Positions 1 through 16,504 of a stretch of DNA of 64,000 nt are shown in pieces. Position numbers and translations under genes: made by a program. Origin of the DNA: an uncultured Bacilli bacterium (GTDB taxonomy: Bacteria > Bacillota_I > Bacilli_A > RF39 > UBA660); NCBI GenBank assembly GCA_934122395.1, contig CAKOWQ010000002.1, positions 2,595-66,594 of the forward strand, read 5' to 3'. The stretch's first letter is position 1; each line of letters opens with the position of its first letter. A model generated the notes under the pieces. The model saw only the letters and a list, made by a program, of their open reading frames with translations. It had not been told where the DNA came from and made no database searches.

Positions 1-3000
1 ATAATTGTTTTTATACATTTGTCTATTTTGTTCCACTTCTTCTACTTCATCATCTAATATTTCATTAGTTTTCTCATTCATATTTAATAATCTATTAACT
101 TCATTTAATCTTTTTTGTTTATCTTTTAACTCTTCTTCTTGATTAAATGGTTTGCCAAACTCTAATTTTGCTTTTTCAAGTTGAGTTTTTATTGTTTCAA
201 GTTCTGTTTGAGAGTCTAATAAATGACTTGATATATTATCTAGTGCATTATCAATTCTTGTAATATTTCCAAGTTCACTATTTCCTAGATTAACTACAAC
301 AGTAGAGTTTCTTTTTAAGATTAAGTTATATTCTTTCATAAAAGCAAAGAACTTTAACTCCATTTTAAATCCTTTATATTCTCCTATCTCTTTTGTTTCA
401 TCACTTATAATACTTTTGCATTCATCAATTATCTTTGCTCCTGCATCTTGCTTTTCAGAATATGTTATTCCATTAATAATCATACCAGTAAAACTATCTT
501 CATTACTATAATTATTATTTAGATATTCAATATCATTTTTATAATTTTCTATTTCTTTTTCTAGTTCTTTTATTCTATTAGGATACTTCTTTTTTATTCT
601 ATCTTCTAAATCATATTGTTCATTTAGATAGCTTTGTTTTAAAAGTTTTAATTTTGATACTTGAGTATCTAACTCGGTTTTTTCTATTATTAGTGGATTA
701 CCAGCTGCAAGTGCTTTTATTTCTGCATAAGAAAGTGCTACTTCATCTATATCTTCAGCACTTCTAACAGGTGTTTTAGATGTCATTATTTGAGATATGA
801 ACTTCTGTTTATTCTCTACTAACTGATAAAGGTAAGCATCAAATGTTTTTTCTGTTACATATCTATAAATATATACTTCTTTATTTTGATTTCCTTGTCT
901 TATAATTCTTCCACTTCTTTGTATTAAATCACTAGGTCGCCATGGACAATCTAAATCATGAAGTGCAATTAATCTATCTTGACAGTTTGTTCCAGCACCC
1001 ATTTTAACAGTGCTTCCCATTAAAACTCTTACTTGTCCTGCTCTAACTTTTGCAAATAATGCTTGTTTTTGTAATTCTGTATTAGCATTATGGATAAATT
1101 CTATTTCATTTTCTGGTATTCCTTTTGCTACTAATTTGTTTTTTAAATCAGTGTAAGCATCAAATGAGCCATCACCTTTTGGTGTTGATAAATCGCAAAA
1201 TACTAATTGAGCAGATTTTTTATCTTTTGTTTCTTCCCATATTCTATAAATATTTTGAGAACAAGTATCTATTTTACTATTCTCATAATCTGGTAATAAT
1301 TCATTTATTAGTCTTTGATCTAGTGCTATTTTTCTACCCTCATTAGTGATTTTAAGCATATTATCTTCTTTTGAATCTACTTCTCTATTTCTTACTTTTT
1401 CAGCTCGTTCTCCTAATGAATTTACTAAATCCAGTTGTGTTTGACTTGGTTTTATTACTACATTTTCATAATTTGCTTTTGGTAATGGCAAATTTAATGT
1501 ATCAGATGTTTTAATATCAGCGACTTCTATAAACATATTCATTAACTCTGGTAAGTTATAAAACTTGGCAAATCTTGTTTTAGTTCTATAACCAGTTCCC
1601 TCTGGTGCTAATTCTATTGCAGTTACTGTTTCTCCAAAAGTAGATGCCCAAGCATCAAAATGTTGTAACCTACTTTCTATTAGTTTATCGTATTGTAAGT
1701 ATCTTTGCATAGTGTATAGTTCCACCATAGAGTTAGAAATTGGTGTTCCAGTCGCAAATACTATTCCTTTTCCACCAGTTATTTCATCTAAATATCTACA
1801 TTTCATAAACAAGTCACTAGACTTTTGTGCTTCCGTTTGAGCAATACCACCTACATTTCTCATTTTAGTATAAAGATATAAGTTCTTATAATAATGTGCT
1901 TCATCAACAAATAATCTATCTACACCTAACTCTTCAAAAGTAATTACATCATCTTTTCTTGATGTACTATTTAGATTTGCTAACTTTTTCTCAATAGACT
2001 TCTGTGTTTTCATCAATGCTTTAATACTAAATCTTTCTCCGTTATGATTTTTTAAATCCTCAATTCCTTTTAATGTATCTTGAAGTTGCTGCTCTAATAT
2101 GGCAACTTGCCTTTTAATGGACATTGGTATTTTTTCAAATTGAGAGTGTCCTATAATTACTGCATCCCACTCTCCAGTAGCAATTCTTGAACAAAACTTT
2201 TTTCTATTTGCTGTTTCAAAATCTTTTTTAGTTGAAACAAGTATATTAGCACTAGGATATAATTGCAAGAACTCACTAGCAAATTGCTCTATTATATGAT
2301 TAGGTACTACAAATAAACTTTTATTGCAAAGTCCTAATCTTTTACTTTCCATAGCACTTGCTACCATTTCAAAAGTTTTACCAGCACCAACTTCATGAGC
2401 TAGTAAAGTATTTCCACCATATAAAACTCTTGCTATTGCATTTACTTGATGTGGTCTTAATGTTATTTCTGGATTTATTCCATCAAATGTTATATGACTG
2501 CCATCATATTCTCTTGGAATTATTGCATTAAACTTTTCATTGTAAAGATATGTTAATCTTTCTCTTCTTTCTTGGTCATTCCATACCCAATCTTGAAATG
2601 CCTGTTTAATTTTATCTTGTTTAGCTTGAGCTATTGCTGTTTCTTTTTTATTTAATACTGCAACTTTTTTCCCATTTTCATCATAGTTATAATCAAAGAT
2701 TTTAGTATCTCTTAAATTAAGTGCATCTTCTATTAGTCTATAAGCATTAGCTCTATTTGTTCCATAAGTAGATGTTACAGCAATAGTATTCCTATCACAA
2801 CTTTTATTTTCAATGTTCCATTCACCAGTCATATCAGAATAATGTGCTTTTACATCTCTTCTAGCATAGATACTAGCATCTATTAACTCTAAAATAAAAC
2901 TAGTAATTATATCTTCTGGTATCCATGTTGCACCTATTCTTATACTTATTTCAGTAGGTGGAATATCTTTTGGAATAACTTTCTTTAAGTATTCTACATT

Positions 3001-6000
3001 GATTTGATAACTATTATCTTCAAATGCAAACTGTCTTGCCACTTTTAGTTTTTCACGAACATTACCAGATAAATACTCATCAGCAGTAACCCAATGATTA
3101 GAATTACCATATTCAGGTACTCTAAATATTTCTCCTTCTAGTTCTTCAAGCATTTTGTCTGTATCCAGTCCACATAACTTTTGCATATATGATATATCAA
3201 CTTTTGCTTTTTCTTGTATTGATACTATTAAAGCATCTCTTGCATTTTCAATAATTCTTTCTTTTGATTTCGGTTTAATTGTTCTTTTGTTAAATAAATC
3301 AGCTTTTCTTTTTAGATTTCCATTTTCATCTAAAACTTCAAGTGAACATAAAAGAAAATAACTTCCATCATTTGAAAATACACTAGCATTACCACGACTG
3401 TTGATAAGTCCATACTTTTTAACAAACTTATCATATAATTCGTTTAACTCTTTTTGTTTATCTTGTATTTCTTCATCACTAGCATTATCTAGCTGCAAGT
3501 TAATAATTTCTCTTGTTATATCTCTTAATTTAACTAAATTCTTAACTCTATTTTCAGCAGTTTCTGATAAGTTTTGAGGATACATTCTACTATTTTCTCT
3601 ATAATAAATTACATTATCAATTAAAGCATAAGAAAAGTTTTTTACATTTATATCAGCTTCAATAGATAAATCTTCATTATCTGCTATATCATCAATCTTA
3701 TAATCTTTTATTTCTGCTTTAACATTTGGTATTGCATTATTAAGCATTTCTTCTAAATTCATACCATCTACAGGAATACAAGCAGGTTCTTCTCCAAATG
3801 GTGTTGATATTAATTCCATTTTTCCTAGTATCATTTGTGGATTATCAACGAAATATTTATTTATTCTTAAATTATTTTCATCAGTATCAATATTTATCCA
3901 GTCTGGCATTATATCTGTAATTGAATCTCTTTTTTGAAGAAATATTATATCTGATGTAACTGTTGTTCCAGCACTATCTTTAAATACATTATTAGGTAGT
4001 CTTATAGCACCAATTAAATCTGCTCTGCTTGCTACATACTTTCTTACATCATCATTCTTTTTATCCATAAATCCTTGAGATGTAATAAATGCTATTATTC
4101 CTCCTGGTCTTACTTTATCTATGGCTTTTGCAAAAAAGTAATCATGTATTAAGAAGTTTCTCATATCATATTTCTTATCGCTTACAGGAATATTTCCAAA
4201 TGGAACATTTCCTATTGCAACATCAAAAAAAGAATTTGAATAGTTTACTTCTTCAAATCCTTTAACTGCGATAGATGACTTTTGATATAACTGTCTTGCT
4301 ATATTTCCACTAATTATATCTTTTTCTACTCCATATATTTTTAACTTATCATTATTCGGTAAAAGTCCAATAAAGTTTCCTATACCACAACCGGGTTCTA
4401 ATATATTCCCTTTATCAAGTCCCATATTGGATAAAGCTTTATACATTGCTTTAATTACCACTGGTGGTGTATAAAAAGCTGTTAAAGTTGATTCTTTTGC
4501 TTGAATATATTCTTCTTCAGTTAGAAGTTCTTTTAATTCATAATACTCATCAGTCCATCTATCTGGATCAAAAGCATCTGATAATCCACCCCAACCAACA
4601 TAATTAGAAAGTATTTCTTGTTCTTCACTTGTAGCATATCTATTTTCTTTCTCACACTTTCTTAAAACATTTATTGCTTTAATATTATTTCTATACCTTT
4701 CTTTTGGTGTTCCCACTCCTAAATAATCAGTATGTATCTTGTAATTTATTCTATCTTCTAATGGTACTTCTGGATGAAGAACATAACTAACTTCTCTTGG
4801 TTTTGTTTTAATAGGAACTTCTATTTTATCTTCTTTTAAATCATCAATTATTAAAGTATTATCTTTATTATTTATATCCTCTAATACTTCTTCTTTATCA
4901 ACACTTAAATCTAATACTTTATCATCAAAGTTATGATAATAAACATATATACTATCTGGAGTAACCCTTATAGCAAAGTCTTTATCTTTTTCAAGCATTT
5001 TAAATAGTTTATTACTTTCTATTTGCTCTTTTAACCTTAATTCACTTGTTTTATCAGTATTAAAATATGTAAAACTAGTATCGTGATTAGTATTATTACT
5101 ACTTTCTAATGATATTGTTAGATTTCTTTTTTTAGATTTAATATGTTCCCATTTTTCTAATTCTACTTTTTTTATTTCAAAACTATTTTCCCATATTGTA
5201 TCTTTAGAACACTTATTAAACATATCAACTATAACATCAGCAAACTCTTGCTCTTTAGTGGCAAACAAAGATAACTGTGCTTTCTCACTTCTTGGCATTA
5301 CTATTTTTTCTTTTTCAGTTGGTAATTTAGTTTCTTCCTTTTCATATTTATTAGCATAGTTTTTTAATTTATTATAATCTTCCTCATTTAATAATGTGGG
5401 AATATTATTATCATTATAATTAAATAATTCATCAAATATAAACTTATAAAACTCTTTACCATACCAAATATTATCATCATCCATTGCTATCAGATTATCT
5501 TTATCATCATACATCAATTCAATATCATTTATCTTGTATTTATTTAATACATCATAAAGTAATCCTATTTCTCCATCAGTTTTATCATACATATAAATAA
5601 CTGAAGAAAATTCATCATTAAATATTTGTTCTAACTTATCAAATAAAGCATCTGTTGATAATCCTTTATTAAACCAATCTGCCTCTACTATTTCGTTTTC
5701 CCAGGTATCCTCATTTGTTCTAGTTCCTAATTCTACTGTTGCTATTCCATTTATATAATGAAGTTCTACACAGTATAAATTAGTTTTAACTCTTGCTACT
5801 GTAAATGAGTTAGTATCATCTAAATCTTCTAAATTAGTTATTAACTCACTTTCAACAATATCTTTTCTACTATCTGAAAAAAGAATACTGTTGTTAGTAT
5901 TCTCTTGATTTAGTTGAAGATTAACTCCCTCATCACTATTTCCTCTGCTTGATTCTTCAAGTTGTTCATTAGTCCTGTCCACTTCATTGGATCTTCCATC

Positions 6001-7095
6001 TTCAAGTTCTCTGTTATATTCTCTTGTGCTATCAATTCTTTCATTATCAAGTTCACTCTCATCTCGGCTGTTGTATCTATCTCCAATAGGTGTTCTGTTA
6101 GTGTATCCTTGATTTTCATTTGCTCGTATAAAGGTTTCTTCTTGCTCTTTAGGTAATCCAACCTCATAAAACCATATTTCCCTATGTTGAAGTTTCTCTC
6201 TTTCACTTTCAAGTTCGGTATCTTGTAATCTCCTACTGTTTTGTAAGTTATCATTTACTTCACTCCTCTCCTTTAATTCATCTTTAGCATAAACTATATT
6301 TTTATCATTATCAAATGTACGAATTTTTTCTATTTCGCTTATTCTTATATTTTTTAATGTTTCATAAATATTAAGCAGTGTCATTTTACTTATATCACTT
6401 GTAGCAGTTCCTAAACTTACAACACTCTCTATATCTTGAAACATTATAATATCTTGAAAATCAGTATATAAAAACTCTTTATCAGCATTACCCACACATT
6501 TATTTATAAGCATATAAGCAATACTTTTTTGAAGTAAGTTTTTATATTTTTGAATAATTAAATCATTATCTATATTTATGAGTCTCGTATTTTCTTTATT
6601 ATCTAGTAAATAATCAATATAATCTGTTATGTTATCTTCCACTAAATTAGTTGCAACTGATTTTAAACTATCAATAAAAGTATCTTTATTTTCTAATTCT
6701 CCATATCTATTTTCTAGTGCCTCTACAACTTGATCTTGATAAGCTATTCCTACATTCCAAACTCTAACCTTTTTACCTTTTCTACCATACATACTTTGAG
6801 TATCTGATACATCCCATACATATCTTATAGATGGTTTGCCATACTTTTCAGTTATTAGTGCTATACCACTATGACCTTTTTTAATTATTCTATTTAATTT
6901 ACTATTCCAAGTATCATAACTAGCACAAGCTATAGCAGTTGGTCTTTGAGCATATATAAGTAATTGCTCATCAAAATCATACTTATAGTTCTTTGAGGCA
7001 CAACTTAAAAACGATTGCCATTTTCTTGAATCAGAGGTTATATCAGCAATCGTTTCATTATAGACTTCTTTAATATCTACTAATGTTGTAGCCAT
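1..7095 (-). CDS. Giant conjugative-element protein (C-terminus beyond window start, more than 2360 aa). Domains in order: ArdC-like N-terminal domain, acidic repeat linker, N6-adenine DNA methyltransferase, SNF2/DEXH helicase, coiled-coil tail.
   Basis: Continuous minus-strand reading frame from ATG at 7095 (SD GAGAGG 8 nt upstream) to position 1 with no stop found by manual translation. MTase motif I 'LEPGCGIGNF' (~4370-4400) and motif IV 'GNVPFG' (~4195-4212). Helicase motif I 'AHEVGAGKTF' (~2385-2400), motif II 'LFVDEAHYYKN' (~1895-1915) and C-terminal helicase motifs. N-terminus 'YDTWNSKLNRIIKKGHSGIALI' resembles ArdC-N ssDNA-binding domains. Absent from the ORF track only because no stop codon lies in the window. 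Confidence 0.7.
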   Translation of the reverse strand, partial: MATTLVDIKEVYNETIADITSDSRKWQSFLSCASKNYKYDFDEQLLIYAQRPTAIACASYDTWNSKLNRIIKKGHSGIALITEKYGKPSIRYVWDVSDTQSMYGRKGKKVRVWNVGIAYQDQVVEALENRYGELENKDTFIDSLKSVATNLVEDNITDYIDYLLDNKENTRLINIDNDLIIQKYKNLLQKSIAYMLINKCVGNADKEFLYTDFQDIIMFQDIESVVSLGTATSDISKMTLLNIYETLKNIRISEIEKIRTFDNDKNIVYAKDELKERSEVNDNLQNSRRLQDTELESEREKLQHREIWFYEVGLPKEQEETFIRANENQGYTNRTPIGDRYNSRDESELDNERIDSTREYNRELEDGRSNEVDRTNEQLEESSRGNSDEGVNLQLNQENTNNSILFSDSRKDIVESELITNLEDLDDTNSFTVARVKTNLYCVELHYINGIATVELGTRTNEDTWENEIVEADWFNKGLSTDALFDKLEQIFNDEFSSVIYMYDKTDGEIGLLYDVLNKYKINDIELMYDDKDNLIAMDDDNIWYGKEFYKFIFDELFNYNDNNIPTLLNEEDYNKLKNYANKYEKEETKLPTEKEKIVMPRSEKAQLSLFATKEQEFADVIVDMFNKCSKDTIWENSFEIKKVELEKWEHIKSKKRNLTISLESSNNTNHDTSFTYFNTDKTSELRLKEQIESNKLFKMLEKDKDFAIRVTPDSIYVYYHNFDDKVLDLSVDKEEVLEDINNKDNTLIIDDLKEDKIEVPIKTKPREVSYVLHPEVPLEDRINYKIHTDYLGVGTPKERYRNNIKAINVLRKCEKENRYATSEEQEILSNYVGWGGLSDAFDPDRWTDEYYELKELLTEEEYIQAKESTLTAFYTPPVVIKAMYKALSNMGLDKGNILEPGCGIGNFIGLLPNNDKLKIYGVEKDIISGNIARQLYQKSSIAVKGFEEVNYSNSFFDVAIGNVPFGNIPVSDKKYDMRNFLIHDYFFAKAIDKVRPGGIIAFITSQGFMDKKNDDVRKYVASRADLIGAIRLPNNVFKDSAGTTVTSDIIFLQKRDSITDIMPDWINIDTDENNLRINKYFVDNPQMILGKMELISTPFGEEPACIPVDGMNLEEMLNNAIPNVKAEIKDYKIDDIADNEDLSIEADINVKNFSYALIDNVIYYRENSRMYPQNLSETAENRVKNLVKLRDITREIINLQLDNASDEEIQDKQKELNELYDKFVKKYGLINSRGNASVFSNDGSYFLLCSLEVLDENGNLKRKADLFNKRTIKPKSKERIIENARDALIVSIQEKAKVDISYMQKLCGLDTDKMLEELEGEIFRVPEYGNSNHWVTADEYLSGNVREKLKVARQFAFEDNSYQINVEYLKKVIPKDIPPTEISIRIGATWIPEDIITSFILELIDASIYARRDVKAHYSDMTGEWNIENKSCDRNTIAVTSTYGTNRANAYRLIEDALNLRDTKIFDYNYDENGKKVAVLNKKETAIAQAKQDKIKQAFQDWVWNDQERRERLTYLYNEKFNAIIPREYDGSHITFDGINPEITLRPHQVNAIARVLYGGNTLLAHEVGAGKTFEMVASAMESKRLGLCNKSLFVVPNHIIEQFASEFLQLYPSANILVSTKKDFETANRKKFCSRIATGEWDAVIIGHSQFEKIPMSIKRQVAILEQQLQDTLKGIEDLKNHNGERFSIKALMKTQKSIEKKLANLNSTSRKDDVITFEELGVDRLFVDEAHYYKNLYLYTKMRNVGGIAQTEAQKSSDLFMKCRYLDEITGGKGIVFATGTPISNSMVELYTMQRYLQYDKLIESRLQHFDAWASTFGETVTAIELAPEGTGYRTKTRFAKFYNLPELMNMFIEVADIKTSDTLNLPLPKANYENVVIKPSQTQLDLVNSLGERAEKVRNREVDSKEDNMLKITNEGRKIALDQRLINELLPDYENSKIDTCSQNIYRIWEETKDKKSAQLVFCDLSTPKGDGSFDAYTDLKNKLVAKGIPENEIEFIHNANTELQKQALFAKVRAGQVRVLMGSTVKMGAGTNCQDRLIALHDLDCPWRPSDLIQRSGRIIRQGNQNKEVYIYRYVTEKTFDAYLYQLVENKQKFISQIMTSKTPVRSAEDIDEVALSYAEIKALAAGNPLIIEKTELDTQVSKLKLLKQSYLNEQYDLEDRIKKKYPNRIKELEKEIENYKNDIEYLNNNYSNEDSFTGMIINGITYSEKQDAGAKIIDECKSIISDETKEIGEYKGFKMELKFFAFMKEYNLILKRNSTVVVNLGNSELGNITRIDNALDNISSHLLDSQTELETIKTQLEKAKLEFGKPFNQEEELKDKQKRLNEVNRLLNMNEKTNEILDDEVEEVEQNRQMYKNNY

Positions 7096-7114
7096 TTAAT
7101 TTACCTCTCTTTCT

Positions 7115-7438
7115 TTATTTTTTTTGTTCTCTATTTTCAATTAACTTACTATAATAATCTTCTACATTATCATTTTTTTCAGCTCGTAATAATAATTGCC
7201 AAATCATATCACTTGCTTCGTTAGGAAAAAATCTTACATCTACAAATTCTATATCATCATTATTAACTCTTGGTACTGAATATGTAAGTAATTTATTCTT
7301 TAATTTTTCTGCAGTTGTTGAAAACTTTTCATCTTCAATATTCATCTTTATATTAAAATCTAAAATACCAACTAATTGATTAAATAAATCTTTACATAAT
7401 GATAATTGTGTAGATGGTGTTCTTGTTTGATGTGGCAT
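7115..7438 (-). CDS. Hypothetical protein (107 aa), leading-region small ORF.
   Basis: ORF track. Tightly packed between the sortase cluster and the giant MTase/helicase, same strand, near-overlapping neighbours. No recognisable motif. Confidence 0.4.
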   Translation of the reverse strand: MPHQTRTPSTQLSLCKDLFNQLVGILDFNIKMNIEDEKFSTTAEKLKNKLLTYSVPRVNNDDIEFVDVRFFPNEASDMIWQLLLRAEKNDNVEDYYSKLIENREQKK

Positions 7439-7743
7439 TATATCTTCACTCCTCTCCTAATTGTTTTTGGGAATATTACTAAACAATCATCTATTTCTTC
7501 ACTTTTGTTACTATTCCCTAATAATTCTCCTCTAATTTCAATGTATGTATTTTTATTTATTTCTGGGAAATCATTTATACAAGGTGTAAATAATATAAAT
7601 GATATATAGTTATTAACTCTTTCAATCTTATTATCATTTATAACTTTCATCTTTGTAGGTATTTCTAAAATAAATCTTGTAAATAATTCATTATCAAATA
7701 CATCTTTCTTTATAACTTTACCTGATATTTTTATTTCATTCAT
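7438..7743 (-). CDS. Hypothetical protein (101 aa), possibly an OB-fold/SSB-like protein.
   Basis: ORF track. N-terminus 'MNEIKISGKVIKKDVF..ELFTRFILEI' resembles the N-terminal strand pattern of plasmid SSBs (MN.v.L.GrL...). Start overlaps the stop of the upstream ORF (ATGA-type coupling). Confidence 0.3.
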   Translation of the reverse strand: MNEIKISGKVIKKDVFDNELFTRFILEIPTKMKVINDNKIERVNNYISFILFTPCINDFPEINKNTYIEIRGELLGNSNKSEEIDDCLVIFPKTIRRGVKI

Positions 7744-7967
7744 CTTTCATCACTCCTATCTTTATCTTTATTTAACGACACTTGTTCTACTACTTTACTT
7801 TCTTTTATTTCTACATCTATATTTTTAGATAGTTTATCTTTTATATCTTTAACTGTAATACTATCTAATGTATCTTTTAATATTCTTCTAGCTTCTTCTT
7901 CATTTTCTGCTACTACAGTTATTTTCATTCTTTCGTATAAATTAACATTAAACTCATAATTATTCAT
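7740..7967 (-). CDS. Hypothetical protein (75 aa).
   Basis: ORF track. 4-nt overlap with the downstream ORF, consistent with an operon of small leading-region genes. Confidence 0.35.
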   Translation of the reverse strand: MNNYEFNVNLYERMKITVVAENEEEARRILKDTLDSITVKDIKDKLSKNIDVEIKESKVVEQVSLNKDKDRSDER

Positions 7968-8208
7968 TTTCTTTTCCTCCTTTTATTTCTTCGCTATTAC
8001 TTAAAAAAGCAATTATTTGTCTATTCTTAATTGCTTTCTTTAAATCTAATAAAATAATTATTTCATTACCATTTACATCTTGTATTTTTGTTAAATCATC
8101 TAATTTTATATTTAAAATATCTTTTTCAGTTTTAAATCCTGCTTTAAATATTTTCTCTAATACTTTTGTTATTTGACTTAAATTATACTTATTCATAGTT
8201 TTCCTCAC
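7960..8208 (-). CDS. Hypothetical protein (82 aa).
   Basis: ORF track. 8-nt overlap with the neighbouring ORF. No recognisable motif. Confidence 0.35.
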   Translation of the reverse strand: MRKTMNKYNLSQITKVLEKIFKAGFKTEKDILNIKLDDLTKIQDVNGNEIIILLDLKKAIKNRQIIAFLSNSEEIKGGKENE

Positions 8209-8866
8209 TTTCTAGTTCTAAAATATAAACTATTTGCTTTGTTTTATCAGTTTGACTACAAGTAATTAAAGTTAAAGTATTCTTTTTATTATCTCTATGA
8301 ATTACAACTTTTCCTGTCTTATCAACATCATATTTTCCTGCTACTTTATATGTATATTTAATATTATTAAAATAAACATAGGCAACATCATCATTGCTTA
8401 ATTTATATAGATTTTTAAAATATGATATATAACTATTTCCAGAATGAGCAGCAATTATAAGATTTCCATTTTTAACATCTGGCATATCACTACCCTTTAT
8501 TACTTGTAAGTTTTTATTAACATTATTACCTTTATCATTGATATTTAAAAATCCTCTTTTTACATTTATTTTAGGTATTTCAAGAACTCCAATATAACTA
8601 TAATTTGGTGTTTTCTTTTCTTCTTGTTTTGGTTGTTCTTGAGTATCTTCATCATCAATATCAACTTTTATTACTTCAACTTCTTCTTTACCAATATTTA
8701 AAAACTCTTGGGCTTTTTTATAATCTCTTAGTTCTATGTAATAGTTATAACCAATTCTACCTATATACATAAAAGCACCAGTTAAGAATATGAAAGAAGC
8801 AACTAGTTTAATTAGTTGCTCCCTTTTATTTACATTTTTATTTTCTTTTGTTCTTTTTAGAAACAT
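8189..8866 (-). CDS. Sortase (cysteine transpeptidase).
   Basis: N-terminal TM anchor. Active-site His region 'LIIAAHSG' and catalytic Cys motif 'TLTLITC' (TLxTC). Sits immediately downstream of, and overlapping, its likely substrate gene. Confidence 0.75.
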   Translation of the reverse strand: MFLKRTKENKNVNKREQLIKLVASFIFLTGAFMYIGRIGYNYYIELRDYKKAQEFLNIGKEEVEVIKVDIDDEDTQEQPKQEEKKTPNYSYIGVLEIPKINVKRGFLNINDKGNNVNKNLQVIKGSDMPDVKNGNLIIAAHSGNSYISYFKNLYKLSNDDVAYVYFNNIKYTYKVAGKYDVDKTGKVVIHRDNKKNTLTLITCSQTDKTKQIVYILELESEENYE

Positions 8867-11411
8867 AAAGAAATACCCCCATTCCTACTACCATACAAGT
8901 AACACTAATTACTGTATATAGTTTACTGTTATTAGCCATAGTGTTTGGTACTTCAACTATTTGTTCATTAGTTAAATTAGCTTTAACTATTTCTCCATTT
9001 TCTTTGATTTCAAACTCTATAACTTCATCTGTTATTTGGTAACCAGTTGCACTTTCTTTTTCAATAATATGTCCTTTTCCTATAAATAAATCTTTAATGA
9101 TAATTTGACCATTTTCATCAGTAAGTCCAGAGAATATTAAAGTAGATTCTATTGTTCCATCTTCTAGTTCTTTATCTGAATAGATTTCTATTAAAGTATT
9201 AGGAATTGGTTTACCACTAACTAAATCTGTTTTAGTAAATTCTAAAGTTCCTTTTTTATAATAGTTTTGTAATTCTACATCTTTAACTATTTCTTTAGTA
9301 TATTGATCTTTATACTTTAACTCAAAAGTATATATTTTTTCATCTAACACATGATTATTATCTGTTGATTTCTCTTTTATATAGTATTTTCCAAGCTCAA
9401 GCCCATCAATAGTTGCCTTACCATCAGCAGTAATAACAGTTGTTATCAATTCATCTTTTGAATATTTTTTCTTACCACTAACATAAATATCCTCGTTAGC
9501 ATAAAGTTCTAATTCAACTTCGCTTAATAATATCTTTTTGTATCCAAAAGTATTATTATCTATAATTAGCTTTTCTCCATATTTAGTGATATTTAATTTT
9601 CCTTTAACTCTTTCATTCGCAAACTTAACTACTAATAAGGCACCGTAATCTTTATCAACTAGTATCTCGCTACCTTCTCCAATATGGATTGGCATTGCTT
9701 CACTATTCCAAACATAACCATCTAAGACATGATTTTCTACTTCTTCTAAAAGAAAATCTCCAACTAGATTTGATGGTGTTATAATCACTCCATTTTCATC
9801 TGTTTCATATTCACATACTTTTTTAGCAGTTGGATATGTTATTGTTTGACAAACATATTCATTAGTTTTAGCATCTTTTATTTTAAACTTAATACCTGCT
9901 TTAGTTATTACTTCGCCTGTTTCTTTATCAGTTTTAATAACTTTTAATTTTGCCTCAATAGGAGCATTGCTAACTAATTTATAAATATCACTACCAGTAT
10001 TTTCATTTACTTCAACTTCAAAATCTTTTACCTTTTCATAATCTGGTGTTGAATTAATTTGTTTAAAAGTATATTTACCATAAGGTAAAGTTATTTTTGC
10101 ATATCCTTTATCATCAGTTGTGATAGTATCTGCTAAACAAGTATTACTGTCTTTCAATAATGAATTAGAATTACAATTATTTAAGTAAATCTCAAATGTT
10201 ATATTAAGCTCGCCTTTTAATATTCCAGTTGCTCCACTTGCAAATGTTTTAAATAATGTAACATCTGCTTCTATAACTTTTTCATATACTTTCACATTAG
10301 CAAGTAAATTGTCTTTATCTACTACAAATGAATATTTATTGTTTGTATCTAAAGTATATCCTTTACTAGGTGATAGTTCTTTTAAATAAAACTCCCCTAA
10401 TGCTGGTAAATAATCACTTATACCATATCCATTTTCATCTGTAGTAATTTCTCCAACCTTTTCGTTATTCAAGTTATATATACCATACTTTGCACCACCT
10501 AGCGTGGCGTTTCCTTGTGGAATATTATTTTTAGTTTCACTATCCACTTTATTTATCTCTACTCTGCCACCAACTGACTCTAACTCTATACTCTTAACGA
10601 CTGGGTCAGCATTTCCAACTCTCATAACATTTTGAGAATGGTTAGAATAATAAACTATTGGAGTTACATCATAATAAGATGGTTTTTTAACTAAATTAAC
10701 TTTAACATTTTCTATTGAATTAGATGTGATTGTTAAAGTGTTTCCATTTATACTTGCTACACCATTTTCTACTGATGAAATACTAAATTGACTTAATACT
10801 CCATTTGTATCTGTAAAATCCAGACTTTTACCTATTGGTAATTTAACTCCGTCAATATTAAAACTTGGTTTAGTATAATGTTTATTTAATAAATCTTCCA
10901 TCTCTGCTATTTCACTAGCAAATTTATTTGGTAAGTCATTTCCATTTAGTGTATCTGTAAATACAATTCTTGATGTAGGTACTGCTGTTCTCCATATCAT
11001 AACCTGAGTAATCACATACCATTTATTATTTGAATGGTCATATCCATTTTCTTTATATTGATAACCATAATATGCTAAAAGTGATATTCTTTGCCATTGT
11101 TCTTCTGTCATATTAAGATATACAGCAAAATCACTTCTAGCTATTTTATAATAAGGCAAATTATTATCTATATCTACATAAGGTTGTAGGCAATAGACGA
11201 ATTTATTATCCTCACTTCTTCTTATAAATCCTGCTTGTTGATACTTAATGTATCCATCTTCTCTGTATTTTTTAATAAAAATATTTGCTATCTTTTCAGA
11301 TGGCCAAATAGCTTGACCTTTATATTCTTCAGCATTTACTTTTGTAATGCCAAAAAATATCGTAAAAAAAAGTATGCCGATTAAAGCATACAAAGTCTTT
11401 GTTTTATTCAT
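8838..11411 (-). CDS. Cell-wall-anchored surface adhesin with Cna-B-type (prealbumin-like) repeat domains and a C-terminal sorting signal.
   Basis: Signal peptide 'MNKTKTLYALIGILFFTIFFGITKVNA'. Repeated 'TDENG..' Cna-B-like modules (e.g. 'TDENGYGISDYLPALGEFYLKELSPSKGYTLDTN', 'GLTDENGQIIIKDLFIGKGHIIEKESATGYQ'). C-terminus 'VPNTM' followed by a hydrophobic segment and 'KKNKRK' tail, a classic sorting-signal architecture with a non-LPXTG motif. Confidence 0.7.
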   Translation of the reverse strand: MNKTKTLYALIGILFFTIFFGITKVNAEEYKGQAIWPSEKIANIFIKKYREDGYIKYQQAGFIRRSEDNKFVYCLQPYVDIDNNLPYYKIARSDFAVYLNMTEEQWQRISLLAYYGYQYKENGYDHSNNKWYVITQVMIWRTAVPTSRIVFTDTLNGNDLPNKFASEIAEMEDLLNKHYTKPSFNIDGVKLPIGKSLDFTDTNGVLSQFSISSVENGVASINGNTLTITSNSIENVKVNLVKKPSYYDVTPIVYYSNHSQNVMRVGNADPVVKSIELESVGGRVEINKVDSETKNNIPQGNATLGGAKYGIYNLNNEKVGEITTDENGYGISDYLPALGEFYLKELSPSKGYTLDTNNKYSFVVDKDNLLANVKVYEKVIEADVTLFKTFASGATGILKGELNITFEIYLNNCNSNSLLKDSNTCLADTITTDDKGYAKITLPYGKYTFKQINSTPDYEKVKDFEVEVNENTGSDIYKLVSNAPIEAKLKVIKTDKETGEVITKAGIKFKIKDAKTNEYVCQTITYPTAKKVCEYETDENGVIITPSNLVGDFLLEEVENHVLDGYVWNSEAMPIHIGEGSEILVDKDYGALLVVKFANERVKGKLNITKYGEKLIIDNNTFGYKKILLSEVELELYANEDIYVSGKKKYSKDELITTVITADGKATIDGLELGKYYIKEKSTDNNHVLDEKIYTFELKYKDQYTKEIVKDVELQNYYKKGTLEFTKTDLVSGKPIPNTLIEIYSDKELEDGTIESTLIFSGLTDENGQIIIKDLFIGKGHIIEKESATGYQITDEVIEFEIKENGEIVKANLTNEQIVEVPNTMANNSKLYTVISVTCMVVGMGVFLYVSKKNKRK

Positions 11412-11458
11412 ATTTATCTTTCCTTTCTTTTTCCAAAATAAAAAGACACTTTATGTGC

Positions 11459-12025
11459 CTAAAATAATTTAATCATTTCTCCTAAATATCTACCAGATGC
11501 ACTGTTTATTGTAGAACAAGAAAATCCCATTCCACTTTCTTCACCATACTTAATACAAGCATTAAAACAGTTTTCCTGACTTCCATACTTTTCAATAGAA
11601 AAATCTACTTTAGCCCAACTCCATGCAGGTTTATTGTAATAATCATCTTCACTCATTCCAAGTTCTTCCCAAGCTGTCATTTCTTTCTTTTCTTCTTGTT
11701 TTGGTTCTTCAATTACATTTTTTTCAACCTGTTTTTGTTCTGGTTGAGTAACTTTTTCTTCTTTTTGCACAGTACTTGTTTTTTGATCTGGTATATTTTT
11801 TTCTTTTTCCACAGTATTTGTTGATAAATCCTCTGCTTTTGAAATTGGTTCTTCTATTTTTTCTTCTTTTTGAGTATTAATTTCAACTTTATCTTGTGAT
11901 TCATGCTCAGCTTGATTTGATTTTGTTGTATCTGATTCCGGTACTGATTTTCCATTAAATGCACTCCCTAGTCCAACAACCAGACTTACAACTACAAAAG
12001 CTATAAAAATTCGTATTAGTTTCAT
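11459..12025 (-). CDS. Secreted Glu/Lys-rich protein with a Cys-containing C-terminal domain, function unknown.
   Basis: Signal peptide 'MKLIRIFIAFVVVSLVVGLGSA'. Imperfect E/K-rich repeats. Own promoter-like ATGACA-17-TATGTT and RBS AAGAGGAG upstream (12026-12090). Confidence 0.5.
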   Translation of the reverse strand: MKLIRIFIAFVVVSLVVGLGSAFNGKSVPESDTTKSNQAEHESQDKVEINTQKEEKIEEPISKAEDLSTNTVEKEKNIPDQKTSTVQKEEKVTQPEQKQVEKNVIEEPKQEEKKEMTAWEELGMSEDDYYNKPAWSWAKVDFSIEKYGSQENCFNACIKYGEESGMGFSCSTINSASGRYLGEMIKLF

Positions 12026-12173
12026 CTCACATCACTCCTCTTCTTTGTCTTAACATAGCATATTTTAACTATTTTGTCATATCTACTAATTATTTTTTTT
12101 CAGTTAGTAATAATAGTTAGTATTATTTTTAGGGGAGATTGTAAGAGGGGGCTTTTTGGCAAATATACTCCCA

Positions 12174-13139
12174 CTATCTTTCATTGCTTTCTTTTTCTCT
12201 CTTTTTTTGCAACCACCTCCCATAAAAACTAACTGCTTTAACAACATAATCTTCCTTTTCTTCATTTGTTGTAAGATTAGTTGGGAGTATATTATTTAAT
12301 TTGTCCATATTAACTTTTAGAGTTTGTATTTGATTAGGTTTTTCTTGCTCTAAAATAGTTTCCATATACTCTCTTGTAAGTTTATTATCTTTACTTAATC
12401 TTTTAAAATCTTGGGCTTGTGATAATGATGGAGTACAAGCAAAACATTCCATTATATCTAAAAGTTCTTTTTGTTCTTCTTCTTTTAAATAAGATATTTC
12501 AACTGCTGGACTTATTGCCATACTTGGAGATAATTTCAAAGCATCATTATCTACCATTTGAAGTATTTGTGGTATTAGTTCAGTTAGTCTAATATATCTA
12601 TGAACTTGTCTAGCACTTTCGTTGTTTTCCATACCTATTATATCAACAGTTTTTAACTTGTCGCCAACTTGGCGAGAAGTTGCAACTTTACCTTGATGAC
12701 TTAATGCTTCCATTTTTAATTTATAAGCAAATGCTTTCTCGCTTGGTAGTATCTTTTCTCTTTGCAAATTACTATCAACCATTATAATAGTTGCCTCATC
12801 ATCAGATAAATCTCTTACTATACAAGGTATTGTTTCTAATCCTGCTAACTCACTAGCAAACTTTCTTCTATGACCAGAAATCATTTCATATTTGCCATTT
12901 TCTTTTGGTCTAACTAATGTCGGCACTAATACGCCATTTTCACTAATACTTTCTGCCATTTGTTTCATATCTTCATTATCTATTACTTTAAATGGGTGTT
13001 TAGGGAAGTCATCTATATCATTTAAACTTATATTTACTACTTTTTCTTTTAATTTATCATCTCTCTCTTCTTGTGTTGAAAACAGGTCATCATCTAGTAA
13101 AATCTTTGGTAGAGGCATTTTTGTTTCTTTCTTTACCAT
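12174..13139 (-). CDS. parB: ParB-like partition protein (ParB/Spo0J N-terminal domain).
   Basis: 'GHRRKFASELAGLETIPCIV' ParB box II-like motif. Located directly downstream of parA with a short overlap. The true start may be the internal Met (MPLPKILL, ~13118). Confidence 0.7.
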   Translation of the reverse strand: MVKKETKMPLPKILLDDDLFSTQEERDDKLKEKVVNISLNDIDDFPKHPFKVIDNEDMKQMAESISENGVLVPTLVRPKENGKYEMISGHRRKFASELAGLETIPCIVRDLSDDEATIIMVDSNLQREKILPSEKAFAYKLKMEALSHQGKVATSRQVGDKLKTVDIIGMENNESARQVHRYIRLTELIPQILQMVDNDALKLSPSMAISPAVEISYLKEEEQKELLDIMECFACTPSLSQAQDFKRLSKDNKLTREYMETILEQEKPNQIQTLKVNMDKLNNILPTNLTTNEEKEDYVVKAVSFYGRWLQKKREKESNER

Positions 13140-13920
13140 TCTCCATTACCTCCTTTGCAAATAAGGTATATGAATCTGCTACCTTACTATTTTTATCATA
13201 AGAGAAAATACTTTCTCCATGAGATGTTGATTTTGCTACATTTACTGCCATAGGTATTTGAGTATTATATATCTTTACTTTACTTCCATAACTTTCTTGA
13301 AGTTCATATCTTACTTGATTAGGTAAAGTTGTTCTCTTATCTACTAGTGTAAGCAAAACACCATCTACCATCAAGTTTGGGTTTATTTGTTTTCTCACTC
13401 TTGAAATTGTTTGTAAAAATTGTCCCATACCTTTCGCAGCTAAAAACTGTGTTTGTACTGGAATAATTACTTTATCGGCACAAGCAAGAGCATTTATTGT
13501 TATCATACCTAAACTAGGCATACAATCTATCAGTATATAATCATACTTATCTTTATATTTAGATAATGTATTTCTCATAACACTTTCTCTACTCATTACA
13601 TTAACAAGTCCTACCTCTAATTGTGATAAATCTAAATTAGATGGTATTAAATCCACTTCTTCATTATGATGCAATATTACATCATCTATGTTTATATTGT
13701 CATCTCTAATAGTGGCACTCATTACATCTGCTAATGTAGTCTGTATTTTATCTAAATCAGTCCAACCCATGCAAGTAGTTAAATCTCCTTGTGGATCAGC
13801 ATCTACTAGTAATACTTTTTTTCCTCGTTTTGCTAATGCTACACCCAAATTAAAAGTGGTAGTTGTTTTACCAACTCCACCTTTTTGATTTGCAATAGCA
13901 TATATCTTACAATTATCCAC
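13090..13920 (-). CDS. parA: ParA/Soj-family partition ATPase (plasmid type, no N-terminal HTH).
   Basis: Deviant Walker A 'KGGVGKTTTT' and 'LLVDADPQGDLT'. 276 aa. Confidence 0.85.
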   Translation of the reverse strand: MDNCKIYAIANQKGGVGKTTTTFNLGVALAKRGKKVLLVDADPQGDLTTCMGWTDLDKIQTTLADVMSATIRDDNINIDDVILHHNEEVDLIPSNLDLSQLEVGLVNVMSRESVMRNTLSKYKDKYDYILIDCMPSLGMITINALACADKVIIPVQTQFLAAKGMGQFLQTISRVRKQINPNLMVDGVLLTLVDKRTTLPNQVRYELQESYGSKVKIYNTQIPMAVNVAKSTSHGESIFSYDKNSKVADSYTLFAKEVMENGKERNKNASTKDFTR

Positions 13921-14196
13921 TTTTTTCTCTCCTTTCTTAATATTTTAGTTTCGCAAAATCAAATAAAAAAAGAGCATATTTTCTCAAAATATTTAGCTCT
14001 AATATTTTTAAAATGCCCGTATTATATGACTTCAACGATTATTCTTGTATGTACCAGTTTTATAATTATCGTCCATGCCCTGCATCTACTACAATTTTAT
14101 AATCCATTCTATATTCCTCCTCGAAATATTTTATGATATTTATCTATATTGTTGTATAAAAAAAGAACAATTCAATATCATTGTTCCAAAAGATTG
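13921..14196 (-). promoter_or_regulatory. parA upstream control region with four AATATTT/AAATATTT palindromic repeats (candidate centromere/operator), and a Rho-independent terminator of the upstream small ORF (GGAACAATGATATTGAATTGTTC + T-run, ~14165-14200).
   Basis: Repeats 'tcaaaatatttagc', 'ctaatattttta', 'cgaaatattttatg' and 'taatattttag' within 200 nt. Inverted repeat GAACAAT...ATTGTTC followed by a T-run on the minus strand. Confidence 0.3.
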
Positions 14197-14385
14197 TTAA
14201 TCATCATCCTCATTATAATAATCGTCATCTTCCAAATCTTCTTCCTCAAAATTCCAACTATCATAATTTCCCTTATTCAATTCATCTGTTTGCAAGAAGT
14301 CTAAATCATTATTCCCATCCAGTTTATCCTTTTGATTTTCGGAGTCATCTAATAATCCTGACAAAAACGATAATATAATACCCAT
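14197..14385 (-). CDS. Small, highly acidic protein (62 aa) with a hydrophobic N-terminus.
   Basis: Strong RBS AAAGGAGGAG 6 nt upstream of the ATG. Sequence 'MGIILSFLSGLL' followed by a D/E-rich tail (EEEDLEDDDYYNEDDD). Own terminator downstream. Confidence 0.45.
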   Translation of the reverse strand: MGIILSFLSGLLDDSENQKDKLDGNNDLDFLQTDELNKGNYDSWNFEEEDLEDDDYYNEDDD

Positions 14386-14424: not shown

Positions 14425-14450
14425 TATAAAAAGAACAATTTCTTGTTCTT
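14425..14450 (-). terminator. Rho-independent terminator of htrA.
   Basis: AAAGAACAAGAAATTGTTCTTTTT on the minus strand immediately after the htrA stop codon. Confidence 0.6.
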
Positions 14451-15559
14451 TAATCAGTTGATTTTGATAACGTTACAGTAGTTGTATGTTCTTTTCCACC
14501 CCTATTATAAGTAATAGTTATCTTATCTCCAACATTATATTTATATAAAACATATTTTAAATAAGCAGCATTCATTACTTCTTCTTTATCAATTTTAGTA
14601 ATTACATCACCTTTTTGTAATCCTGATTTTGATGCTCCAGAACCATTTACTACTTCGACTACAACAATACCACTTGTAGCATTATTTGGAATAGTAATAC
14701 CATAACTTGCTAAAGTTCTAGTATCGCTTGTATTTAATAGTTTTATTCCTAACATTGGCCTTTCAATTGTCTGAGATTTTTCTAGTTCTTCTACATGAGC
14801 CATGGCATCTTCAATCTTAATAGAGAACCCCATTCCTTCAATACTACTATCTACTAATTTCATTGAATTAACTCCAATTACTTCGCCATTCGAATTCATT
14901 AGTGGCCCCCCACTATTTCCAGGATTTATAGCTGCGTCAACCTGAGATACTTTCATAATCCAATCTGATTGTGAATTAACGCTAACAGTTACTAAACGGT
15001 CAATACCAGAAATAATACCGCTTGTAACAGTATTATAATATTCTTCACCCACTGGAGAACCTATAGTAAAGATAGTATCACCCAACTTTAATTTTTCAGT
15101 ACTACCAATAGTGGCAACTTTCAACACTTCTGATACTGGAATACGTAATACCGCAATATCTAAATATTCATCTCCACCTAATTTAGTAGTTTCTATTTCT
15201 TTTCCATTTGTCATAAGTACTGTTAATTTTGTTGCGTTTTCAACTACATGTTCATTAGTCATAATATATCCATATTTTTCATCAGTTTTATATACAAATC
15301 CACTACCAGTACTTGCTAATTTACTTCCTTGATAGTTTTTTATCATAACTACTGCATCATAAACTTTTTCAACAGCAGCACTTATTCCTGTATTATCTAC
15401 TATAACTTTATTTTCACAACTAGTATATTGGCATCCTAGTGCTCCAGCTTGATTACTACTACCTTTGCCAAATGGATTAGTAATTACTACATACATTACT
15501 CCTCCACCTAATAAAAATGCACACAAGACAAGTAGAAAATTAATTATTCTTCCACGCAT
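14450..15559 (-). CDS. htrA: HtrA/DegP-family serine protease (trypsin-like domain plus PDZ), membrane anchored.
   Basis: N-terminal TM anchor. Catalytic His 'MTNEHVV', Asp 'DIAVLRI' and Ser 'NPGNSGGPL'. C-terminal PDZ-like region. Confidence 0.85.
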   Translation of the reverse strand: MRGRIINFLLVLCAFLLGGGVMYVVITNPFGKGSSNQAGALGCQYTSCENKVIVDNTGISAAVEKVYDAVVMIKNYQGSKLASTGSGFVYKTDEKYGYIMTNEHVVENATKLTVLMTNGKEIETTKLGGDEYLDIAVLRIPVSEVLKVATIGSTEKLKLGDTIFTIGSPVGEEYYNTVTSGIISGIDRLVTVSVNSQSDWIMKVSQVDAAINPGNSGGPLMNSNGEVIGVNSMKLVDSSIEGMGFSIKIEDAMAHVEELEKSQTIERPMLGIKLLNTSDTRTLASYGITIPNNATSGIVVVEVVNGSGASKSGLQKGDVITKIDKEEVMNAAYLKYVLYKYNVGDKITITYNRGGKEHTTTVTLSKSTD

Positions 15560-15565
15560 TTGTTA

Positions 15566-16504
15566 TCACTCCTTTTCAATGTTAGCAATATTTTCCCAAT
15601 TTTCTGGAAATCCCATTCTATCTAATACTTTAGATATTGGTATAGAATATAAATTATAATTTAAATTATCTAATGCATGATCTATTTCAATAACCATATT
15701 TTTTATTTCAGTATCTGTTAATAAGTGTTTCATTATAATTATTAAAGCAAATAAATCGTTTTTACCATATTTGTATTCACCATCTACTTTTTCAATATTT
15801 AATAGATTATGATATATGGTATTACCTATAATTTTTTGTGTTTTGTTTTCAAACAATATATCTTCGTGTGCACATAAATTACGATAGTTAGATAAGATTG
15901 GTAAATATATACCTAAAGCATTAATATCCATACCATATATTTCAGCAATTGCAATTCTATCATCTATCCTTAGTATAGAGTATAATTCACTAACTATTCC
16001 AAAAGATAATACTTTAACTAATACCCATAACGGAATATATCCATAATTACTTAGATAGTGAACAGTAGCAGAATGTTGTCTACCATTAACATGAATTTGT
16101 CTTTTCATCTTCTTTATTAAATCATTTACTTGTCTTGATTTTTCAGGACTAGTATCAAAGTTTTTAGGCTTTAAATAATCATGTTCTTTGTAACCATATT
16201 TTTTAGATAAACGATAAGATATAATAGACTTTAGATTGTTTTCCACAATTAATAAATTTTTAAAAATAATATTACGGAATTGGCGGTCAAACAAAAATAA
16301 ACTATACAACTCCTCGAAAGTAGTTCCTTCTATAAATTTTTTAGGATCATTACTACTCATAAATAAATGTCTATATCCACTTAAGAAAAAGTAATTCTCT
16401 CTTAATAGTACTTCTTTTGCATAGACTTCGTCATTAATTACCAAGCCCTTATGCTTTAAGATTTCTATTTGTTCATCTAAAGTTTTGAACTGCTTTGTCT
16501 TCAT
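15566..16504 (-). CDS. Abortive-infection protein, Abi_2 (AbiD/AbiF-like) family.
   Basis: N-terminus 'LDEQIEILKHKGLVINDE...FLSGYRHLF' and conserved 'PLWVLVKVLSFGIVSELY ... YRNLCAHEDILF' (RNxxAH motif) typical of PF07751-type Abi proteins. Confidence 0.65.
   Translation of the reverse strand: MKTKQFKTLDEQIEILKHKGLVINDEVYAKEVLLRENYFFLSGYRHLFMSSNDPKKFIEGTTFEELYSLFLFDRQFRNIIFKNLLIVENNLKSIISYRLSKKYGYKEHDYLKPKNFDTSPEKSRQVNDLIKKMKRQIHVNGRQHSATVHYLSNYGYIPLWVLVKVLSFGIVSELYSILRIDDRIAIAEIYGMDINALGIYLPILSNYRNLCAHEDILFENKTQKIIGNTIYHNLLNIEKVDGEYKYGKNDLFALIIIMKHLLTDTEIKNMVIEIDHALDNLNYNLYSIPISKVLDRMGFPENWENIANIEKE

Follow-up and report, generated by a model that had tools for sequence, protein, structure and literature searches.

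At the left edge of the DNA analyzed here, a stretch of 64,000 nucleotides from an uncultured Bacilli bacterium of the lineage RF39 (assembly GCA_934122395.1, contig CAKOWQ010000002.1, positions 2,595 to 66,594; the whole stretch is referred to as the window), an open reading frame (ORF) begins at position 7095 on the minus strand and runs off the end, which raises the question of what so large a protein is and what it does for the integrative and conjugative element (ICE) that carries its gene. The giant protein is a four-part fusion of 2367 amino acids (aa), consisting of an ArdC-N-like head, a variable middle, an LPD36-like region with a gamma-class N6-adenine methyltransferase (MTase), and a SNF2 ATPase with a conserved C terminus. 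This fusion architecture and the membership of the gene in an ICE are jointly close to certain. Judged by its sequence, the protein belongs to the polyvalent LPD36-methylase-SNF2 dyad proteins, a class that has already been described. The reading that we favor, with a probability of about 0.6, is that it is a polyvalent establishment protein of the ICE that would shield incoming DNA from restriction.

The giant gene and its product

Translation of the minus strand from 7095 to 1 gave 2365 codons with zero stops. At the local base composition, which corresponds to a stop probability of 0.099 per codon, stops are expected every ~10 codons, and the probability of finding none in 2365 codons is ~1e-107; on the same strand, 259 and 408 stops interrupt the other two frames. 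The start codon is the ATG at 7093-7095, with an in-frame stop one codon upstream. Because the relatives measured at full length have 2362 to 2367 aa, including the 96 to 97% identical copies at the related loci L001 and L009 (2367 aa, stop codon included), the window cuts away only ~2 codons and the stop. A preliminary description of this DNA, made from the letters alone, had proposed a single uninterrupted frame of more than 2360 aa that was absent from the mechanical ORF list only because it leaves the window without meeting a stop, and the translation agrees with it on both counts. The motifs that it quoted all lie at the places it gave, with WNSKLNRIIKKGHSGIAL at aa 63, LEPGCGIGNF at aa 899, GNVPFG at aa 962, GAGKT at aa 1570, and DEAH at aa 1731. 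Its term "unannotated" is correct for the window but not for the family, which is common in public data under names such as SNF2-related or helicase-related protein. The parts of the gene are listed below.

1 to 7095, minus strand: giant polyvalent-protein gene, 2365 of ~2367 codons, the final ~2 codons and the stop lying off the window.
7104 to 7110, minus strand: ribosome-binding site AGAGAGG, as read from the sequence, 8 nt upstream of the ATG at 7093-7095.
6781 to 7095, minus strand: ArdC-N-like subdomain, aa 1 to ~105, three helices and a nested beta-hairpin unit at aa 57-101 (AlphaFold2 models and Foldseek).
6316 to 6780, minus strand: helical extension of the 260-aa header, aa 106-260 (header-family search and AlphaFold2 model).
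5806 to 6315, minus strand: acidic low-complexity linker, aa ~261-430 (composition; weak conservation).
4786 to 5805, minus strand: lineage-restricted variable middle, aa ~431-770, with no Pfam match and missing from relatives at ≤60% identity.
4486 to 4728, minus strand: LPD36-like helical region with GWGG (GxGU) at aa 834-837, window 4585-4596 (definition from PMC5512222, section 14).
3925 to 4512, minus strand: gamma-class N6-adenine DNA methyltransferase, aa 862-1057, with FYTP at aa 874, EPGCGIGNF at aa 900, and NVPF at aa 963.
2476 to 3924, minus strand: intervening region between MTase and helicase, aa 1058-1540, conserved among relatives.
766 to 2466, minus strand: SWI2/SNF2-type two-lobed ATPase, aa 1544-2110, with GAGKT at aa 1570, DEAH at aa 1731, TGTP at aa 1782, and QRSGRIIR at aa 2059.
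1 to 765, minus strand: C-terminal region, aa 2111-2365, a small globular segment between two short coiled-coil-like helices.

The methyltransferase and the helicase that had been read from motifs were both recovered with hidden Markov models (HMMs). A Pfam scan of the whole protein (hmmscan, 2365 aa) returned SNF2-rel_dom, ResIII, and Helicase_C above cutoff at aa 1544-2068 and no methyltransferase family. When aa 801-1200 were scanned alone, N6_Mtase scored 38.6 bits (cutoff, 20.4) and Eco57I scored 32 bits (cutoff, 25.3), and the PADLOC models for type II, type I, and orphan MTases (MTase_II, oMTase) agree with the call. Giant low-complexity proteins of low GC content (28% GC) should thus be scanned piecewise, as whole-protein HMM scans can overlook domains. 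Motif IV of the MTase reads NVPF, with Val in place of the first Pro of the canonical NPPF/Y. The GWGG motif at aa 834 sits 40 residues before the TP motif, in a conserved block that begins at about aa 770-800, and the label LPD36-like refers to this GxG[GAS] motif and its position alone. In the ATPase, motifs I, II, III, and VI are all present, and NCBIfam and PADLOC models of DrmD/BrxH-type helicase lobes match the region. All catalytic motifs of the giant protein are intact. In the precomputed Pfam lists of relatives, WH_1 (PF28553) and DUF8437 (PF28554) fall between the MTase and ResIII. The "long coiled-coil tail" of the preliminary description did not hold up, since a crude heptad scan found coiled-coil-like stretches only at aa 2173-2207 and aa 2272-2316, on either side of the small globular piece.

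Conservation, compared across relatives of decreasing identity, differs strongly along the protein, which falls into three parts. The header and acidic linker (aa 1 to ~400) are 25 to 57% identical among relatives, the middle (aa ~400-760) is confined to the closest lineage, and the block that runs from aa ~770 to the C terminus reaches 57 to 69% identity overall and 70 to 87% in the helicase core. In a Rhizobium genome, the conserved block stands alone, beginning at aa 798. The linker and variable middle (aa 260-770) matched nothing in Pfam, NCBIfam, or PADLOC. The variable middle was present in just 2 of 150 header-family representatives, the two closest, and is replaced by other sequence in relatives at ≤60% identity. 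In some header-family proteins, the header is followed by a TnpV domain (E value of 8.6e-41 in one member), and in the Monoglobus locus L002 a TnpV coding sequence (20827-21159) has been annotated within the part matching the N-terminal third of the giant protein. The middle segment is thus a swappable slot.

The N-terminal head

The first 260 residues define a large family of their own. An exhaustive phmmer search with aa 1-260 retrieved 3,544 representatives at an E value of ≤1e-3, nearly always aligned from residue 1, in proteins that range from 226 to 3,009 aa, and all 21 representatives of ≥1,500 aa also bear the methylase-helicase dyad. Among the header relatives, no Pfam family other than ArdcN recurs, and ArdcN does so weakly and below threshold (4 of 32; best E value, 0.025). 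The best ArdcN match in the family is a standalone header paralogue of 294 aa at L002 (E value, 0.002; 18.7 bits versus a cutoff of 22.6), which resembles aa 10-99 of the giant protein at 33% identity. Such standalone paralogues, of 250 to 294 aa, are kept between pcfB and virD4 at several loci (L002, 32654-33538; L011, 25783-26544; L021, 22249-23010; L018, 22338-23219). Sequence searches did not reach ArdC itself: phmmer with aa 1-330 against the PDB returned no ArdC, a 32-sequence header profile against the PDB returned noise only, and hhalign against R388 ArdC aligned just the KKG-x-G motif. The sole PDB match of the phmmer search was the histidine kinase HprS (9epn; E value, 0.0075), which was treated as unrelated.

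Structure prediction reached further. The AlphaFold model of aa 1-260 is confident (predicted local distance difference test [pLDDT], 92; predicted template-modeling score [pTM], 0.90), and a Foldseek search of 350,542 PDB chains with it ranked R388 ArdC (6sna) first with a probability of 0.92, the runner-up having a probability of 0.11. A separate model of aa 1-118 (pLDDT, 90), in which strands lie at aa 57-59, 69-71, 78-84, 87-95, and 99-101, placed 6i89 (probability, 0.89; template-modeling [TM] score, 0.46) and 6sna (probability, 0.85) at the top, followed by Rad4 BHD domains (probability, 0.60 to 0.66; 2.6 Å over 48 residues). Rad4 BHD is a published remote relative of ArdC-N (PMC6222260). 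On these models, the head is probably a divergent ArdC-N-like domain lying outside Pfam ArdcN. The N terminus had been described as ArdC-N; this stands at the level of the fold, with ArdC structures leading the Foldseek ranking for two confident models and with the subthreshold ArdcN matches of the relatives, and fails for the PF08401 HMM and for profile-profile comparison, neither of which was significant. The header family as a whole escapes the current Pfam ArdcN model. Because the zincin peptidase MPTase-PolyVal (PF18818) gave no match anywhere in the giant protein in the Pfam scans and the sequence similarity is not significant, the giant protein is not an ArdC orthologue.

Conjugative relatives and predicted function

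The transfer genes of this copy would lie beyond position 1, outside the window, and the link to conjugation comes from synteny. In the annotated Monoglobus locus L002 (56% identity), the giant gene is followed by a DUF3991/TOPRIM primase, DUF3846, MobC, a relaxase, PcfB, the header paralogue, VirD4 (CD1115), PrgI, VirB4 (CD1110), sortase B, and CHAP, and the ICE carries tet(O/32/O) and tet(40) as cargo. By tblastn, MobC-relaxase-PcfB-VirD4 also comes after the giant gene at L011 (97% identity), L021 (87%), L019 (82%), L015 (69%), and L018 (60%), and PrgI and VirB4 are among the linked transfer genes across relatives of 56 to 97% identity. The gene is thus placed, co-oriented, between the partition and adhesin genes and the primase-MobC-relaxase-VirD4-VirB4 block, with a Toprim primase and a helix-turn-helix (HTH) regulator immediately downstream of it in the relatives. 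Because the MobC-relaxase-PcfB-VirD4 order trails it in relatives, it is a backbone gene of a Firmicute ICE family. The proposal that it marks a conjugative element is therefore supported by synteny, with the transfer genes off the window and one truncated exception. This is L009 (19641-27095), where a 97% identical giant gene and its primase are followed by a tyrosine integrase and an integrase fragment and then by genes for LysR, NUDIX, and an aminotransferase, whereas MobC, relaxase, and VirD4 are all absent. The idea of an element devoid of transfer genes, hinted at by L009, was rejected after the tblastn search across all loci.

The closest copies come from uncultured gut Bacilli/Tenericutes metagenome-assembled genomes (MAGs) and Hadza gut metagenomes. 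For this reason Clostridioides difficile, to which the GC content and the cluster size had pointed, was rejected as the host. Public data yielded 6,392 matches, with 2,646 member sequences in one 90% identity cluster, and full-length copies at 80 to 97% identity number in the thousands. Copies that are 96 to 97% identical occur in MAGs labeled Bacilli, Tenericutes, and Clostridia (L009 to L013 and L016), which suggests either recent ICE spread between gut lineages or inconsistent MAG binning or taxonomy.

Several described systems share parts of this architecture. The dyad of LPD36, gamma-class adenine methylase, and SWI2/SNF2 in polyvalent proteins was defined by Iyer et al. (2017; PMC5512222, section 14), and the giant protein has the same domain order, GxGU before the MTase, the TP motif, a motif IV of the NPP(Y/F) type, and a C-terminal SNF2-type ATPase. 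It differs from that definition in a header too divergent for Pfam ArdcN with a 150-aa helical extension, in having no zincin metallopeptidase for self-cleavage, in its NVPF motif IV, and in a lineage-specific middle of ~350 aa. Homologous methylase-helicase modules are found in phage proteins named DarB-like antirestriction: by tblastn, aa 801-2365 match those of Bcep22 and Ralstonia phages, and similar giants of Klebsiella, Pseudomonas, and Erwinia phages, over 98 to 100% of the query at 32 to 39% identity, and DarB of P7/P1 is 24 to 25% identical (E values, 2e-17 to 4e-17). An antirestriction role has been demonstrated for DarB (cited in PMC5512222), and the predicted role of the giant protein, cis-protection of entering DNA, is alike. 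DarB, however, is packaged in the capsid and injected, whereas conjugative delivery would apply to the giant protein; DarB has no ArdC-N-like head, and the phage giants add a lytic transglycosylase and other domains. ArdC of the IncW plasmids R388/pSa (PDB 6i89 and 6sna) has a fold in common with the first ~105 residues, shows the same order of short motifs (Y-x-x-x-[NE]...L, KG-x-x-G, and Y-V-[FW]-[ND]), and is likewise carried on conjugative elements, but it is a protein of 297 aa with a C-terminal zincin metallopeptidase of family PF18818 (1.2e-48 for R388 ArdC) that the giant protein lacks.

The "snf2" backbone gene of streptococcal ICESa2603/Tn5252-type elements and genes of Firmicute plasmids belong to the same family as the giant gene. 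Plasmid and ICE proteins of Streptococcus suis, Streptococcus agalactiae, Clostridium perfringens, Clostridium botulinum, Listeria, and Bacillus, annotated as SNF2-related or helicase-related proteins, are 40 to 56% identical to it over 70 to 85% of its length, and snf2 has been described as encoding a methyltransferase with an SNF2 helicase domain (PMC12942858). In contrast to the streptococcal ICEs, the present element belongs to a different ICE lineage, with CD1110/CD1115-type VirB4/VirD4 of gut Clostridia/Bacilli, and differs in the middle segment of the protein and in its hosts, which are uncultured gut Bacilli MAGs. Six such dyad proteins are present in Faecalibacterium ICEs, where the dyad counts as variable rather than core (PMC12084326). 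A functional precedent, set beside the giant protein by description only, is offered by the plasmid-borne, single-strand-specific N6-methyladenine (m6A) MTases M.EcoGIX and M.BceJIII, of which M.EcoGIX is an orphan that protects the entering plasmid strand (PMC7736820). These too are orphan adenine MTases on conjugative plasmids, but they are far shorter proteins that lack an SNF2 motor and require DNA polymerase I. Orphan MTases are also enriched in plasmid leading regions (PMC11541004). Type ISP/III restriction-modification (R-M) enzymes and DISARM DrmD/DrmMI resemble the giant protein in coupling an adenine MTase to an SF2 translocase and in single-lobe HMM similarity; the giant protein differs from them in having no nuclease or partner genes, and its scores are far below the family cutoffs.

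These comparisons with DarB (Iyer 2017), M.EcoGIX (PMC7736820), and leading-region orphan MTases (PMC11541004) are the basis of the favored reading of the giant protein as an establishment protein. To reach the recipient, the protein would either accompany the DNA through the type IV secretion system, a route suggested for ArdC and TraC1, or be produced there at an early stage. The head would bind the transferred single strand while conjugative entry is under way or immediately afterward, the SNF2 motor would move the enzyme along the DNA as the strand becomes double stranded, and the MTase would deposit m6A, so that the restriction enzymes of the recipient would no longer see the ICE as foreign. 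The giant protein would then be the conjugative counterpart of phage P1 DarB. The preliminary description had called it a candidate broad antirestriction factor; "candidate" matches the published prediction for the class (PMC5512222) and the DarB-like homology, both of which are inferential, and "broad" is unsupported.

A number of observations weigh against this reading. The antirestriction role of this family is a prediction only, and a 270-kDa protein is a demanding substrate for a type IV secretion system. The position of the giant gene in a leading region is an assumption, because oriT was not located. A composite streptococcal ICE in which Tn1806 disrupts snf2 remains transferable at low frequency (PMC12942858), so snf2 is not essential for transfer as such. 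Motif IV of the MTase is noncanonical. As for the head, Pfam ArdcN (PF08401) had no match in aa 1-300 even at an E value of ≤10; hhalign against a profile of 121 genuine ArdC-N sequences aligned only the 17-residue KKG-x-G motif (P = 0.07); and because the Foldseek E values are weak (0.02 to 0.085, with a TM score of 0.46), the resemblance to ArdC-N is one of fold and falls short of proven homology.

Other roles can be proposed for the same domains. SNF2 enzymes are double-stranded DNA translocases and remodelers, and the protein could act in the processing or maintenance of the element's own DNA, with the SNF2 ATPase remodeling nucleoprotein at oriT, at the replication origin, or at the partition complex and with methylation as an epigenetic mark that regulates ICE genes, without any antirestriction effect. 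The operon-like array that has parA and parB upstream, and the Toprim primase and HTH regulator that lie directly downstream in relatives, would fit such a role. It is nevertheless an improbable one, as DarB, the closest characterized relative, counteracts restriction and the module is common to virion-injected phage proteins; that the dyad is variable in Faecalibacterium ICEs and that snf2-disrupted composite ICEs transfer also argue against a core processing function. Slightly less probable still is an ICE-borne defense or exclusion device, similar to R-M or to DISARM/BREX, in which methylation would mark the resident DNA and the helicase would act against phages or competing elements to the benefit of the host cell. 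Coupling of a methylase to a helicase is typical of type I, III, and ISP R-M (PMC5512222, section 14), and domain-level similarity extends to the DrmD/DrmA lobes of DISARM, BrxHI of BREX, type II, IIG, and I MTases, and mad2. These single-lobe matches, however, are far below cutoffs (for DrmD, 36.6 bits versus 610), and the giant protein has no nuclease, PLD, Mrr, or other effector domain. Pfam and PADLOC scans found no nuclease or restriction endonuclease domain in it or in its neighbors across the window and the relatives (ParA, ParB, adhesin, sortase, small ORFs, HTH, DUF6664, DUF3848, and Toprim primase), and DISARM or BREX partner genes flank it neither in the window nor in any relative. 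Its fixed position in the ICE backbone and a header of the ArdC-N-like kind, typical of transferred proteins, also speak against defense.

It is very unlikely that the gene is an inactive relic carried along on a decaying element. The copy at L009, 97% identical and located in an element from which the relaxase and type IV secretion genes are gone, and the NVPF form of motif IV could be taken as signs of decay, but a 7.1-kb frame has been kept open despite the stops expected every ~10 codons, the catalytic motifs are all retained, the helicase core remains 70 to 87% identical where the N termini of relatives diverge to ~30%, and full-length copies exist in the thousands. A bolder version of the establishment hypothesis, which we regard as speculative and rather doubtful, is that the 260-aa header is a distinct Firmicute-type delivery and single-stranded DNA clamp module that carries the ~270-kDa enzyme on the T-strand through the Gram-positive type IV secretion system, after which SNF2-driven, processive adenine methylation of low specificity "paints" the whole ICE and permits broad evasion of restriction. 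If true, such painting could explain the 96 to 97% identical copies in several gut MAG lineages.

The insertion site and the bearing of the finding

The remaining features of the element in the window lie upstream of the giant gene, and the array from parA to the giant gene consists of overlapping genes or genes with very short spacers.

7115 to 8208, minus strand: four small ORFs in a tight cluster immediately upstream of the giant gene (82, 75, 101, and 107 aa).
8189 to 8866, minus strand: sortase, upstream of the giant gene.
8838 to 11411, minus strand: 857-aa thioester/SpaA-repeat surface adhesin, upstream of the giant gene.
11459 to 13920, minus strand: 188-aa ORF, ParB (12174-13139), and ParA (13090-13920), the first genes of the element.
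13963 to 14072, minus strand: terminal 110 bp of the ICE; the homology with the L001 ICE begins at 13962.

One of the four small ORFs (7740-7967) is weakly DpnD/PcfM-like (E value of 0.001, below cutoff), and the other three small ORFs had no matches.

Element and chromosome meet at 14072|14073, which falls in codon 12 of an amidase gene that starts with the ATG at 14105-14107. Down to 14073 the window is 100% identical to ICE-free strains, diverging beyond; because this identity stops there, the ICE occupies positions 1 to 14072 and extends off the window, where its other end lies. The window is otherwise chromosomal, with a GC content of 28.5% and with ffh, ftsY, ezrA, tyrS, leuS, rplM, rpsI, and truA, together with a ribosomal-protein operon, rpoA, secY, and adk that were recognized by ORF sizes. 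The ICE is inserted in the chromosome of a gut Bacilli lineage. ARAGORN found no tRNA or tmRNA genes in the 64-kb window, and the ICE is therefore not considered tRNA targeting. A tyrosine integrase upstream of parA, expected as in L001, is absent, and the element ends in the amidase gene. In other genomes, this ICE module (93% identical in nucleotides across 14 kb) adjoins a tyrosine integrase beside secA (L001, 1865-3142; L009 to L012). Because the present copy sits in the amidase gene with no integrase at this end, integration modules have been swapped on one backbone.

The amidase gene is an insertion hot spot. Strains with 100% identical flanks (L004, L006, L007, and L008) hold a different island in this gene, past codon ~96, whose products are TnpV, a D12 adenine MTase accompanied by a HinfI-like endonuclease, Mrr_cat, AAA_13, HTH_36, and a serine recombinase of 550 aa. 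In the chromosomal flank, an Abi_2 (abortive-infection-like) gene (15566-16504) lies directly upstream of an HtrA-type protease gene (14450-15559) in all strains examined, and an extremely acidic ORF of 62 aa (14196-14384) separates this pair from the ICE junction. Farther along, a 585-aa HerA/DUF87-type ATPase (23571-25328) is wedged between a ylxM-like gene and ffh, which are usually adjacent.

The architecture of the giant protein was catalogued computationally in 2017, and its gene is routinely called "snf2" in ICE papers; it also marks an ICE end cleanly. Members of the family are present in great abundance in the human gut, and tet(O/32/O) and tet(40) are carried along with relatives. 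If the giant protein methylates incoming DNA, it would be a major factor in the spread of resistance-carrying ICEs among the Firmicutes, and it would contribute orphan m6A signal to gut methylomes.

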